DNA of 64,000 bases from Octopus vulgaris (taxonomy: Eukaryota): assembly GCA_951406725.2 (NCBI GenBank), contig OX597830.1:23622001-23686000 (forward strand), given 5' to 3'. Below, one piece after another: positions 5,329 to 51,925 of this stretch. Both the position numbers and the translations under genes were made by a program. A model generated the notes under the pieces. That model saw nothing but the letters and a program-made list of their open reading frames with translations, had not been told where the DNA came from and made no database searches. Positions within the stretch are counted from its first letter, which is position 1; each line of letters opens with the position of its first letter.

Positions 5329-5564
5329 CACCATGTTCTTAATGATGAAATTAACCTCTTTGTCTATATATCTACCCTCTTTGTAATGTTGGCAAATGAA
5401 TTAAGTATAAAAATATGCATTGTCCGTTTAATAAAAAAATTCTATATGTGACTGAAGATTGCTCGACATTTTAAAACTGATGTAATACTTACAGTGTTTA
5501 ATAAAATGAAGTAGCATGAAACGATTGTACTACACTACCTTGGATATCCTTGTTGCTTATTTTG
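5329..5564 (+). mobile_element. (TA)n-flanked non-coding element with hammerhead-like core and long stem II (family A, copy 1)
   Basis: CTGAAGA at 5452-5458, GAAA at 5518-5521 and GTA at 5527-5529; second copy at 23194-23429. Confidence 0.65.
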
Positions 5565-6763
5565 CTATATATATATATATATATATATATATATATATAT
5601 ATATATATATATATATGCATATAGGTATATGTATATATATGTCTGTATATATGTATATATGTATAGATATATATGTACTGTTGTGTCTGGGGAGAGTCAT
5701 TTTCTTTTTGTGACTTATAATTTAACACACGAACTCACATAAAGAATCGTGCAAACCAAATCCCAAATCGAAATATATATATATATATATATATATATAT
5801 ATATATATATATATATACATACATAATTACAAAAGATAAGGAATTCCTATTTTATTTTATGTAATTTTCTGTGCGTATACCATACCATGAGGTTATCCTG
5901 AAATAGGAGTCGCTTATCTATTGGTAAATACCCCAAATTTGTAATAATAATATTATAAAATATACTTTTTACATTTCTTGAGAAAAGTGTAAAACAGTAA
6001 ACTTCCTGATAACCTGGAATATTTGTTATTCCCTAATATATATATATATATATATATATATATATATATATATATATATATATATATATATATATATATA
6101 TAATCATATGGATGGATGGAATAATAGATGGAAGTACGGATGTGTGTATGCATGTGTATGTGTATGCAAGTTAAGCCGGTTCTATATTTCGAAATGAAGA
6201 CATTGTGTACAGAGTCAAAAATAAAACTTGTTGATTCGAAACGGCGAAGGAATCACATTCAAAAATTATTTTCTATTTAATCTGCAGACGTTATAGTATT
6301 GGTGTCTTTTTTCTTCGTACATACGTACGTACATGCATTCATACATACGTTTGTAGATACATACGTACATACTGATTCATCACACACACACACACACACA
6401 CACATACACACACTTAAACGTATATATAGATGTATATATATATATCTGTATATGCGTATATATGTTTAAGCTGGGTGTGTGTGTGCATACAGACACACAC
6501 ATTTACACGCACACAGACACATATATATATATATTTACATATGTTTATGTATATTTATACATGTTCATATATATATGTATATATATATATAAATACACAC
6601 CCAGACACACACACACATATATGATATATATATATATATATATATATATTTATATATTTATATATATACACATATATGTATATATGTATATATATATACA
6701 CATATATGTATATATGTATATATATATATATATATATATATATATATATATATATATATATAT

Positions 6764-6975
6764 AAAGTTAATCCAAACATGAAAACACAAAGAGAAAACA
6801 CAACAACGCGAGGACGTGGAACAAGTATAGTATTATTGGACGCTCAGGAAAGAAGGGAAGAAGGAGGGTTTAACGTTTCGACCTGAGTTCTTCGTCAGAA
6901 ACATAGGAAAAGGATCGATCCAAAAAAGGGAAGACGGAGGAAAAAAATCACCAACGGTACACACGCCGTCACATG
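6764..6975 (-). mobile_element. (TA)n-adjacent small element with minimal hammerhead-like core
   Basis: Minus strand 6871-6898 reads CTGACGA-A-GAACTCAGGTC-GAAA-CGTTA; related to 12868-13067. Confidence 0.55.
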
Positions 6976-7201
6976 AATATTATCTATCTGTCTGTCTATC
7001 AGTGAATCAGTATGTCTGTCTATCCGTCCGTCCATCCGTCTGTCTGTTCGTCTGACTGTCTGTCTATATATACAAGTATATATGAATATATATATATACA
7101 AATATATATGAATATATTCAGAAATATATGAATATATGTATATTAATGATATATATATATGTATTATGTATATATGTATTTTATCTATATTTATATATAC
7201 A

Positions 7202-7600
7202 GGCGCAGGAGTGGCTGTGTGGTACGTAGCTTGCTAACCAACCACATGGTTCCGAGTTCAGCCCCACTGTGTCGCACCTTGGGCAAGTGTCTTCTGCTAT
7301 AGCCTCGGGCTGACCAATGCCCTGTGAGTGGATTTGGTAGACGGAAACTGAAAGAAGCCTGTCGTATATATGTATATATATGTATATATGTGTGTGTCTG
7401 TGTTTGTCCCCCTAGCATTGCTTGACAACCGATGCTGTTGTGTTTACGTCCCCGGTCACTTAGCGGTTCGGCAAAAGTGACCGATAGAATAAGTACTAGG
7501 CTTACAAAGAATAAGTCCCGTGGTCGATTTGCTCGACTAATGGCGGTGCTCCAGCATGGCCGCAGTCAAATAACTGAAACAAGTAAAAAAGTAAAAGAGT
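7202..7600 (+). mobile_element. SINE family B, full length
   Basis: Same head, body and GTAAAAGAG tail as the other copies. Confidence 0.9.
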
Positions 7601-7619
7601 ATGTATAAGTATATACATG

Positions 7620-7980
7620 CCCACCTAAATATACATACATATATACATACATATATATATATTTATATTTATATATATAATATATATATATATATATATA
7701 TATATATATATATATATATATATATATATATATATATATATATATATATATATATATATATATATATATATACATAATATATATATATATATATATATAT
7801 ATATATATATATATATATATATATATATATATATATATATATATATATAATATATATATATATATATATATATATATATATATATATATATATATATATA
7901 CATATATATACATATATACATATATATATATATATATATATATATATACATATCGGCATGCATATACATATACATATATT
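7620..7980. repeat. Long (TA)n microsatellite
   Basis: Dinucleotide run; source of the YI-repeat ORFs. Confidence 0.95.
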
Positions 7981-48763: not shown

Positions 48764-49204
48764 CTTTAGCAAATATATTAATAACTGCATTTAGAATACA
48801 CAACCCATGAGGCTGAAAAGATTGCGGGCAGATATTTTCTTTCGTGGTCAAGCACTCATCAATTTTTTAAGTGGAGGGAGAGAATTTGCACAAAATGTTG
48901 GTGACTGGTGAGAACACTTAAGAGGAACGGACATATTTTAAACATGCAGCATTTGACGGGAGAAGAACTGTTGGCCAAGAACTCATGACTACAGTGCTCG
49001 GGGTTAACTTCGATTACATGACTGGCCCCAGTTGGAGGCTCTTCCTATATAAGGAGGAAAACTTTATCCGTATATTTTTTGTATGCGTTTCATATAATGT
49101 TTTCCTCAAACGATTTTATGAAACCCTCTCCTCACAAATTGCAGCCATTCTTTGTCATTTGACGTCTCCGTGTCAAATAAAAGTCATCATAATCATCGTT
49201 GTCA

Positions 49205-50482
49205 TTATCTTCCTCCTCGTTATCTTCCCCCTCCTCCTCCTCCTCCTATCCCTCCTCCTCCTCTTCCTCCCTTTCCTCCTCATTCCTCCTCTTCCTGTCT
49301 CTCCTCCTCCCCATTCCTCCTCCTCTCCCTCCACTTCCTCCCTTTCCTCCCATTCTTCCCATTCCTCCTCTTCCTCATTCGTACTCCTCCCCATTCCTCC
49401 TCCTCTTCCTCATTCGTCCTCCTCCCCTCCTCCTCCTCCTCTCCCTCCTCTCCCTCCTCTCCCTCCTCTTCCTCATTCGTCCTCCTCCCCATTCCTCCTC
49501 CTATTCCTCCTTCAATTTCTCCTCCTATTCCTCCTCCCCTCCCCTCCTCATCCCCCCTCATCCTCCACTTCCTCCACCTTTTCCCCTCCTTCCCTTCCTC
49601 CCCTCCTCCCCCACATCCTCAGCATCATTATCATTATCATTATCGTAGTCGTCATCGTCCCCCTCCTCCTCCTGCTCCTGCTCCTCCTCCTCCTCCTCCT
49701 CCTCCTCCTCCTCCTCCTCATCATCATCATCATCATCATCATCATCATCCTACAGTTGTCATTTTTTCTTTCATTGCGTACTTTCATTCCATCACAGAGG
49801 GCAGCTCAGTGTGCTGAGTTGGGTATATGTGCCGTGGTTTGTTTTGCTGTCATTTTTACTCTATTGAAAGTTCACTACGTAAGATGCGTGCGATGTGCCT
49901 ATTGTTATTATTATTATTATCATTATTATTATTATCATTATTATTATTATTATCATTATTATTATTATTATTATTATTATCATCATTATTATTATTATTA
50001 TTATTATTATTACTATTATTATTATCATTATCATTATTATTATTATTATCATTATCATTATTATTAATATTATTATCATTATTATTATTATCATTATTAT
50101 TATTATTATTATTATTATTATTATTATTATTATTATTATTATTATTATTATTATTATTATTATCATTATCATTATTATTATTATTATTATTATTATTATT
50201 ATTATTATTATCATCATCATTATTATTATTATTATTATCCTCATCATCATCATCATCATCATCATTATTATTATTATTATTATTCATCATCATCATCATC
50301 ATCATCATCATTATTATTATTATTATCCTCATCATCATCATCATCATCATCATTATTATTATTATTATTATTATTATTATTATTATTATTATTATTATTA
50401 TTATCATCATCATTATTATTATTGTTATTATTATTATTATCATCATCATCATCATCATCATCATCATCATCATCATTATTAA
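49205..50482. repeat. (CCT)n, (CAT)n and (TAT)n microsatellite field
   Basis: Explains the 360-aa and 233-aa low-complexity ORFs. Confidence 0.92.
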
Positions 50483-50982
50483 AGTACTACATTCAGAGCA
50501 AATCTCCGCAAGACGGAAGATTTTTTGAATAGAGATGGATGACTTTTTTTTTCCTCAACCCTTCTCTGTCCATTGTCAGCCTCACCACAAAACAGCTGCC
50601 TTTGCCGTTTTTGTCTTCTTCCCTGTTATCGACGACAACAAGAAGAACGTTCTTTTTCATTTCCCATTTTCTAGAATTTTCTCAATTCTCTGACCAAATT
50701 CATATATTTTTCTATTTTTTTGTTTGTCTCTTTCTTTTCTTTCGACTCTGCAGTAATCACTGTTTAATGCTAAACCTCAGCCTCTTGATGATCAATCATA
50801 GTGTCGCTACATGTAAAAAAGTAAAATCATAGGACAAAAATATTAACCTTCTCCTACAAGGCTGAAAAAAAGACACTTCAGCTTCGAGTAACATTTTACT
50901 TACACTTGGGGCTTACAAAGCCGTTGCTTTACTCGGTTTCCATAGCGTTGGGATTAAGTAACCGAGATTACAACACTCCACT

Positions 50983-51400
50983 ACTCTGAAGGGTCCCTCG
51001 GTCCGTCATAGGGTTAACTCTGAAGGGTCCTTCGGTTCATCGCATAAGGTTACTGAAGGGTCACTCGGTCCGTCATAAGGTTAACTCTGAAATGCCCTTC
51101 GGTTCAATGCAGGTTAACTCTGTAAAGTCCCTCGGTTCATCGTAGGTTAACTCTGTAAGGTCCCTCGGTTCATCGTAATGTCACTCGGTTCCTTAACTCT
51201 GAAGTGTCCTTCGGCTCTTTGCAGGTCAGCTCTGAAGGATCCCTCGGTCCGTCACAGAGTTAACTCTCAAGGGTCTCTCAGTCCTTCACAGGGTTAACTC
51301 TGACGTGTTCTACGGTTCATTGCGGGTTAACTTTTAAGGGCCACTTGGTCCTTCACATGTTTAACTCTGAAGGGTCCCTCGGTTCATCGCAGGGTTAACT
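50983..51400. repeat. 33-34 bp minisatellite, about 12 units (AACTCTGAAGGGTCCCTCGGTTCATCGCAGGGTT)
   Basis: Tandem units visible; the array runs into a minus-strand family D-like SINE at 51400-51555. Confidence 0.85.
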
Positions 51401-51698
51401 TCCCAGCTATTACTGGAACATATTTACAGCTGAGTCGACTGGAGCAACGTGAAATCATGTGTTTTGCTGAAACCCCACAACGCGTCACCCAGTCTGGGAA
51501 CTAAGACCACACTGTTTTCGATCGTGAGTGCAAGCCCTACACAATAGGCCACACTTTTGATGTCGATTCGTTGCAAGTTTATATTCCCAGCTATTGCAGG
51601 AACTCATTTAATACTTTAATACAGGAACTCAGTCTAATACTCAATCCAGGAATCGAATCTACGCGCTCAAGATCGTGATCGCAAACTCTAGCAAACAG

Positions 51699-51925
51699 TA
51701 CATTATTTACATTATTTACATTTGAGGGATATTTGTTCTCATATTGTTTGTTGTTAACACAACGTTTCGGCTGATATACCCTCCAGACTTCATCAGGTGT
51801 CTTGGGAAAATTTCGAACCTGGGTCCTCAATCCTAACAGCAAACAAGATTAGGACAAATATCCGTCAAATGTAAATAAAGTAAATAATGTACATAATTCC
51901 TCATCTCTTAAATATAGAACTGTAG
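51699..51925 (-). mobile_element. Small hammerhead-bearing insertion with inverted arms and 10-bp TSD
   Basis: TSD TAGCAAACAG at 51689-51698 and 51926-51935; minus-strand CTGATGA-A-GTCTG-GAGGGTATAT-CAGCC-GAAA-CGTT at 51761-51796; arms at 51699-51756 and 51835-51892. Confidence 0.8.

Follow-up and report, generated by a model that had tools for sequence, protein, structure and literature searches.

Insertions of endonuclease-positive (EN+) Penelope-like elements (PLEs) have been described with an inverted pseudo-long terminal repeat (pLTR), an optional tail of 30–40 bp and a target-site duplication (TSD) of 9–10 bp, and solo pLTRs occur as well (Arkhipova et al. 2013, PMC3846280; PMC8557442). 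In vitro a PLE protein cleaves and extends both DNA strands and favors AT-rich DNA, reverse transcription starts at two neighbouring internal sites which define the tail, and the hammerhead ribozyme cleaved only with protein and was dispensable for insertion (Frangieh et al. 2024, PMC11167929). Metazoan genomes have been reported to contain many heterogeneous hammerhead families, which are found mostly as single copies linked to truncated PLEs and include opposite-strand pairs (PMC4209133). Hydra-1_Obim of Octopus bimaculoides, an element of 2507 bp that inserts in (TA)n, has a hammerhead close to the 3' terminus (Craig et al. 2021, PMC8557442); a preference for (TA)n is given for 26 of 27 Hydra families in the supplement of the same work. 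We investigated hammerhead-like motifs in a stretch of 64 kb from Octopus vulgaris (contig OX597830.1, positions 23,622,001 to 23,686,000), called the window below. The motifs are type I hammerheads in short repeats that probably represent heavily 5'-truncated insertions of several PLE families, of which only the hammerhead-bearing 3' ends have been kept.

Simple repeats make up 24% of the window and its GC content ranges from 28 to 46% in 2-kb bins. Both strands were scanned with structure descriptors, which were fixed only after sites had been seen, and matches were compared to those in unmasked sequence after local dinucleotide shuffling. With a type I descriptor that tolerates mismatches, 5 sites were detected (5452, 22803, 35510, 44219 and 51796), while 100 shuffles yielded 0.05 on average and never more than 1. 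The strict descriptor detected 2 sites (35510 and 6898) versus 0.09 in shuffles; with 4-bp stems it found no site on either strand of the window versus 0.01 in shuffles. When the core was relaxed 12992 was the sole site, and 10 of 100 shuffles also reached one such match. In a scored scan 22803, 35510, 44219 and 51796 obtained scores of 17.5 to 11.3, the lower of which was reached by none of 30 shuffles. The sites at 23317 and 12992 ranked next (0.10 and 0.37 expected, respectively), 5452 and 6898 fell below the stem thresholds. Motif density, which the initial annotation had proposed to compare with shuffled sequence, is raised for stem-supported matches (5 versus 0.05), whereas the bare CUGANGA...GAAA motif is not enriched (14 versus 9.3 ± 3.4, shuffle maximum 19). 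An Rfam scan of the window yielded no hammerhead among the 150 of 240 matches listed, which represent microsatellite noise. Folding recovered helix II at 22803, 35510, 44219, 5452, 23317 and 12992.

Altogether the window holds eight hammerhead motifs of about six sequence types, counting 35510, which had been overlooked at first, and leaving out 36301. The initial annotation had named eight sites with CTGANGA...GAAA cores and a pairing stem II. Seven of these are hammerhead-derived, though of unequal strength; 36301(+) was rejected as a hammerhead since it fails all four descriptors as well as the scored scan, and what is left is a CUGAUGA half-core (36301–36340, +) without a closed hammerhead. 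The estimate of about six distinct types agrees with pairwise comparison: 5452 and 23317 are 96.6% alike over 236 bp, 6898 and 12992 are distantly related (score 36, shuffle maximum 31), and one further pair of the 28 lies barely above its shuffle maximum (24 versus 23). The top-scoring site, 22803(+) with 17.5, shows an intact core, a stem I of 7 bp, a stem II of 4 bp, a palindromic helix III and a GUC triplet, and 35510(+) reached a score of 13.0. At 51796–51761(−) the minimal core is intact with a stem I of 5 bp and one mismatch in stem II, at 44219–44153(−) the core is intact, 6 of 7 positions of stem I are paired and helix III is weak. The site at 6898–6871(−) has an intact minimal core and a stem II of merely 2 bp, and passes the strict descriptor but not the scored scan. 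At 5452(+) the core is intact and the innermost pair of stem I is broken. The window copy at 23317(+) lacks U16.1, which the majority of its family possesses; 12992–12965(−) combines good stems with a change at A6, agrees with the core apart from this position and taken alone is not above chance. Judged by the CUGANGA and GAAA boxes, the UH triplet and helices I–III in the sequence, 22803, 35510, 44219, 51796, 6898 and 5452 are type I hammerhead motifs.

An inverted 5'-truncated copy is an optional trait of EN+ PLE insertions. In 3 of the 8 motif-bearing insertions, here called E4, E5 and E9, an inverted piece placed 5' of the element is a copy of its 3' end, which bears out the inverted partial duplicates reported earlier for three elements. 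The direct copy of E9 (51699–51839, −) contains the minimal hammerhead (51801–51756) with a predicted cleavage site after 51761. Its inverted part (51840–51925, +) consists of an arm (51840–51892) and a tail (51893–51925), and comparison of the flanks revealed a 10-bp TSD on the left (51689–51698) and right (51926–51935). A minisatellite of ~33-bp units (50983–51400) is found directly left of E9. In E4 the inverted part (22633–22781, −) is composed of a copy of the 3' end (22677–22781) and a tail (22633–22676). The direct copy (22782–22998, +) with the hammerhead at 22797–22842 and a predicted cleavage site after 22835 has its start at stem I's 5' edge, following a restart duplication of 11–15 nt (22782–22803); this duplication overlaps the end of the arm by 2 bp. 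In E5 the inverted arm (23069–23158, −) is a copy of 23338–23427 and is followed by 35 bp of filler. The direct copy of E5 (23194–23530, +; core at 23317, 59-nt helix II) belongs to the family of E1, shares its 5' start and has a 3' extension (23430–23530), also present in other copies, that reaches beyond its own arm and beyond E1. In all three cases the 3' ends are unequal, with an extension on one side only: 33 bp on the arm of E9, 44 bp on that of E4 and ~100 bp on the direct copy of E5. A reading of E4 as a miniature inverted-repeat transposable element (MITE) was rejected, as the arms are unequal and other copies run the arm on into direct sequence.

E1, E2, E3 and E8 would be stumps of PLE 3' ends. 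E1 (5329–5564, +) measures 236 bp, has its core at 5452 with a 59-nt helix II and is bordered by (TA)n on both sides. E2 (6765–6975, −; ~210 bp with an approximate 5' boundary) carries the minimal hammerhead at 6898–6871 and its 3' end lies on (TA)n. Its distant relative E3 (12870–13068, −; ~200 bp) contains the degenerate minimal hammerhead at 12992–12965, again with (TA)n on both sides. E8 (44005–44230, −), whose 5' boundary is provisional, has a hammerhead at 44226–44153 with a 43-nt helix II region and a 3' end near (TA)n; no open reading frame (ORF) remnant was detected upstream of it. With respect to TSDs, 10 bp were found at E9, none at E2 and merely (TA)n at E6, the element described next.

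In E6 a hammerhead is physically linked to remnants of a PLE ORF. The element begins with an inverted internal piece (34072–34320, −) from the C-terminal reverse transcriptase (RT) region of a Hydra-type PLE ORF, the outer end of which lies on (TA)n. The direct piece (34448–35262, +) comprises the post-RT region, an Asn-rich linker without CxCX5C and a broken GIY-YIG endonuclease, with the match of the post-RT and GIY-YIG parts to PLE proteins spanning 34448–35160 (+). The hammerhead (35503–35596, +) is located in the 3' untranslated region (UTR): its core at 35510, which shares its strand with the endonuclease, follows the end of the reading frame by 250 bp and has a 58-nt helix II and a GUC triplet ending at 35586. 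E6 runs up to a (TA)5 at ~35787 and thus has (TA)n at both ends. The inverted RT piece corresponds to aa 69–159 of P0137, a relative from Octopus sinensis, and the adjoining direct piece starts near aa 205, an arrangement resembling twin priming, a term from work on L1. An extension of the minus-strand piece to the RT catalytic motif had been seen by eye and was dropped when tblastn did not confirm it. A second, more decayed Hydra-type ORF remnant, E7 (35909–36291, +), lies 5' of the half-core at 36301 and shows a CxCX5C linker and an endonuclease that is cut short. The Penelope RT and GIY-YIG remnants annotated initially at 34085–36340 are therefore present, but they belong to two separate elements, with the RT piece on the minus strand.

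RWK, DKT, a CxCX5C linker, an endonuclease with CxxC and CxH and the lack of both DKG and CCHH are given as diagnostic of the Hydra clade (PMC8557442). The closest named relatives of the ORF remnant are O. sinensis proteins with 47–73% identity over the matched stretches. The ORF portion bearing RW[KR] and DK[TS] lies outside the window remnants; we scored the motifs in the 26 longest relatives and found RW[KR] in 24, DK[TS] in 24, CxCX5C in 25, CxxC..EK in 23 and DKG in none. The endonuclease of E6 has kept CxxC while the CxH position is decayed. Both E6 and P0137 are devoid of CxCX5C and have an Asn-rich linker of 50 and 163 aa, respectively, compared to 31–36 aa in 22 of the 26 relatives measured. 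By its sequence E6 is Hydra-like, short of a full Hydra member by the CxCX5C linker. The Asn-rich linker (34700–34870 in the window, aa 305–450 in P0137) contains 30% N in the window piece and 24% in P0137, and no Cys; it parallels the Asn-rich ORF inserts described only for rotifer Penelope (PMC3846280). The O. sinensis proteins P0005, P0006 and P0137 are pieces of an E6-type PLE ORF; their database names are 'myb-like protein I', 'probable serine/threonine-protein kinase dyrk1' and 'putative uncharacterized protein'. Pfam responds weakly to Hydra-type PLE proteins, with GIY-YIG alone at E 0.008–0.04, and on 126 of 147 stop-free stretches of the window it gave a single match, which is unrelated to PLEs. 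A protein word index, queried with the piece from the window and with P0005, gave no match. An initial assignment of the remnants to the Neptune clade was dropped in view of the Hydra diagnostics and reference sequences.

The claim that most of the elements abut (TA)n held up. Seven of the eight cores lie within 300 bp, a threshold chosen afterwards, of a (TA)5+ tract compared to 28% of unmasked positions (binomial p 0.0008; median test p 0.02); the exception is 51796, at 4.4 kb from the nearest such tract. The ends of E1, E5, E6 and E8 are found at most 11 bp from (TA)5+ on at least one side, their boundaries having been drawn partly at the tract. Among three families of repeats resembling short interspersed elements (SINEs), which served as controls, one also abuts (TA)n (5 of 8 copies within 40 bp), the others do so in 0 of 17 and 1 of 9 cases.

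We also mapped four public sequencing runs on 22610–23530. From three runs 9368, 427 and 323 contigs mapped on E4/E5, so both elements are repetitive and highly variable. Contigs of E4/E5 occur in runs presumed, though not recorded, to be RNA, which says nothing about expression. Position 23393 is T in the other copies at 98%, 92% and 90% of depth in the three contig sets, which restores U16.1, and at 23388 they have A at 73%, 68% and 66%, resulting in a palindromic helix III. Among the 40 of 86 variant rows listed, no variant affects the CUGANGA or GAAA boxes; within the 59-nt helix II (23324–23382) the positions 23330, 23343 and 23359 vary, all of them unpaired. Whether family consensuses keep intact cores had been raised as a decisive point for the initial annotation, and for one family, that of 5452/23317, the majority core is intact. 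In other copies of E4 the arm runs into matching direct sequence (loose ends at 22781/22784) and the tail is covered (depth at 22641–22702), and contigs bridge the 3' extensions of E4 and E5. A head-to-tail joint over a whole unit was found neither among the 15 of 22 joints listed nor in a further joint table. Short back-joints occur from 22843 to 22819 (one contig) and from 23439 to 23406 (7 reads), with no whole core within them, and one contig joins into 22797. In raw reads of run X22 covering 23406–23462, short tandem units were seen that are made of the E5 3' extension and 25–35 other letters (7 and 3 reads). Metagenome scans detected neither the E4 motif nor relatives of P0137.

The hammerheads differ in the length of helix II. 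The span between the boxes is 59 nt in E1/E5, 58 nt in E6 and 43 nt in E8. A hand count in File S2 of PMC8557442 gave 12–26 nt for its 26 Hydra rows; long spans in that file are confined to non-Hydra rows, e.g. PLE-X1. Folding of the 59- and 58-nt spans is superior to that of their shuffles, of which 5–6 (6 for the span at 23324–23382) and 10 of 300 are as good, while folding of the 43-nt span is not (185 of 300). By eye the core layout of E1/E5 is like that of File S2 rows such as Penelope-5_HM, and E2, E3 and E9 agree with the minimal consensus in PMC4209133, where CUGANGA is followed by a bulge. From a longer palindromic helix III, and in E1/E5 also from the U-U with which helix II begins at its base, we infer an origin in Hydra-type families for E1/E5, E6, E8 and perhaps for E4; E2, E3 and E9 would come from families with minimal hammerheads. 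A short palindromic helix III predicts weak cleavage of monomers and a need for dimers or for help by protein. Most copies in the window are decayed and probably inert.

The inverted copies of 3' ends, the unequal ends with a tail, the TSD and an ORF remnant whose 3' UTR contains a hammerhead are the reasons for which we favor truncated PLEs. A PLE protein would cut AT-rich DNA on both strands, and reverse transcription would be primed close to the RNA's 3' end. Early termination would leave stumps of 150–350 bp that retain the ribozyme, because the hammerhead sits within ~60–250 bp of the RNA 3' end. Priming of the second strand would produce the inverted arm, and two start sites, for which there is an in vitro basis (PMC11167929), would produce the tail. 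In E6 the second priming may have occurred internally, giving rise to the inverted piece of RT. The five types other than E6 would share this PLE parentage.

Several observations weigh against this explanation. E1 and E5 begin at the identical base, which random truncation would rarely achieve. E6 is the sole one of six types that is physically tied to an ORF, and a search of the window with a Hydra-type profile only found no parent ORF for E1/E5, E2/E3, E4, E8 or E9. Whole-motif fold z-scores are unremarkable in all nine motifs (−0.1 to −1.5), and TSDs are unreadable inside (TA)n. In addition, of the 1934 million letters in one DNA run of raw reads, no more than 13 reads mapped on E4/E5, in conflict with the other three runs.

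An alternative, which we regard as possible but unlikely, is that some families and above all E1/E5 are fixed-length non-autonomous mini-elements, i.e. a solo terminal repeat that starts its own transcription and is copied in trans by a PLE protein. The two copies are 17.9 kb apart, 96.6% alike and differently flanked, yet share one 5' start base; the E4 direct copy begins at the edge of stem I, and one contig joins into 22797. In rotifers pLTR sequences suffice for mobilisation in trans (PMC3846280), and non-autonomous Chlamys elements are on record (PMC8557442). The argument is based on n=2 copies, however, and a preferred truncation point or the RNA 5' end of an autonomous element would create an identical picture. 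The drop in depth 5' of 23194 is uninformative, because arm and filler occupy the window there, and in E6 a hammerhead end of this sort is found on a copy that is long and contains ORF sequence. The initial annotation had proposed a diverse population of PLE-dependent mini-elements preferring AT-rich targets. PLE dependence, AT-rich targeting and diversity are supported; a separate population of fixed length is not, its sole hint being the common 5' start at 5329/23194. Speculating further, at similarly low probability, a Hydra-derived lineage of octopus with a structured helix II of 43–59 nt might have turned the E1/E5 end (236 bp with a single 5' start and two 3' ends) into a fixed-length high-copy non-autonomous retroelement, moved by Hydra-type proteins of which some have replaced the zinc-finger linker by an Asn-rich spacer and still land in (TA)n. 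If this were true, a helix II of 43–59 nt would be long enough to evade standard descriptors.

We consider it very improbable that the elements are monomers of non-LTR (long terminal repeat) retrozymes replicating via circular RNA. Animal retrozymes do have type I hammerheads, dispersed monomers and an origin in PLE terminal repeats (PMC7229834; bioRxiv 10.64898/2026.07.22.740005), the E4 motif looks the most canonical, and short back-joints occur in reads of E4/E5. On the other hand head-to-tail tandem units were found in 0 of the 8 motif-bearing insertions of the window and no whole-unit joint among the 15 of 22 listed, and the inverted arm, the tail and the minimal or Hydra-type cores are traits of PLEs. 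As to the choice posed by the initial annotation between solo pLTRs and independent retrozymes, the window thus offers PLE insertion traits and no tandem arrangement. Chance matches in AT-rich, repeat-rich DNA, although compatible with the unenriched bare motif, with descriptors set post hoc, with 36301 and possibly with 12992 alone, are the least probable explanation and already refuted for 22803, 35510, 44219, 51796 and 5452/23317, as four sites outscore every match in 30 shuffles, the family majority approaches a functional core more closely than does the copy in the window, and the sites lie inside insertions with PLE hallmarks.

Other repeats were noticed in the window as well. One SINE-like family forms partial head-to-tail clusters (302–1106, 18310–19118, 20445–21356, 25529–25935, 31006–31730 and 48067–48767), and two more are frequent, one of them often beside (TA)n; presumably these repeats resemble octopod ones. 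The 3' end of an ORF of a long interspersed element (LINE) with a zf-RVT domain is located at 62435–63100 (−; Pfam E 2e-8). A stop-free frame at 41260–41541 (+) has no Pfam match; it appears similar to an RTE-type LINE ORF at its C-terminal end.

Objects of this kind have already been published together with their architecture and target bias, one octopus family among them. Literature searches turned up no octopus hammerhead survey other than PMC8557442, and no octopus example in the supplement passages of PMC4209133. A curated repeat library of O. vulgaris contains 31 recently active PLE families (PMC13282606), among which the families of the window may already be annotated. The initial annotation had foreseen less novelty if its elements proved to be known PLE pLTRs, and their anatomy indeed fits 5'-truncated PLE insertions, i.e. 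a largely known kind. Modest novelty may lie in additional families from octopus, in hammerheads with a long helix II, in the two copies with a common 5' start and in a Hydra-like protein that has Asn-rich sequence instead of the CxCX5C linker. If eight such ends lie in a single window of 64 kb, stumps of PLEs together with the hammerheads in them would make up a sizeable and easily misfiled share of octopus repeats: palindromic stumps would pass for MITEs, and the three O. sinensis proteins bear unrelated or uninformative names at NCBI. Variants with a long helix II and a protein devoid of the linker would provide natural tests of the role of the hammerhead in PLEs and of a possible role of the cysteine linker in (TA)n targeting (PMC8557442, PMC11167929).

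In comparison to described systems the elements are like non-LTR retrozymes in their type I hammerhead, a unit of 150–450 bp, low GC content, lack of an ORF and derivation from PLEs (Cervera and de la Peña 2020, PMC7229834; Li et al., bioRxiv 10.64898/2026.07.22.740005); retrozymes by contrast are characterised by tandem repeats, canonical hammerheads and circular RNA. E2, E3 and E9 are similar to the hammerheads of PMC4209133, with a bulge following CUGANGA, a G-C pair at the base of helix II, a palindromic helix III of 1 bp and a short helix I, and the window as a whole resembles the genomes of that study in its heterogeneous, mostly solo families and opposite-strand pairs. Shared with PLEs of the Hydra clade are the protein type of both ORF remnants, the hammerhead near the 3' end and insertion in (TA)n, as well as a helix III of 3–4 bp, often with U-U at the base of helix II; an inverted 5'-truncated copy is also found in Penelope-13_HM (PMC8557442). 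By eye the motif sequences differ from that of Hydra-1_Obim. The 5'-side inverted copy of the 3' end, tails of 33 and 44 bp, the 10-bp TSD and AT-rich targets correspond to canonical EN+ PLEs (PMC3846280; PMC11167929), from which the window elements deviate by the E5 extension of ~100 bp instead of 30–40 bp and by the inverted piece of E6, which stems from the internal ORF.

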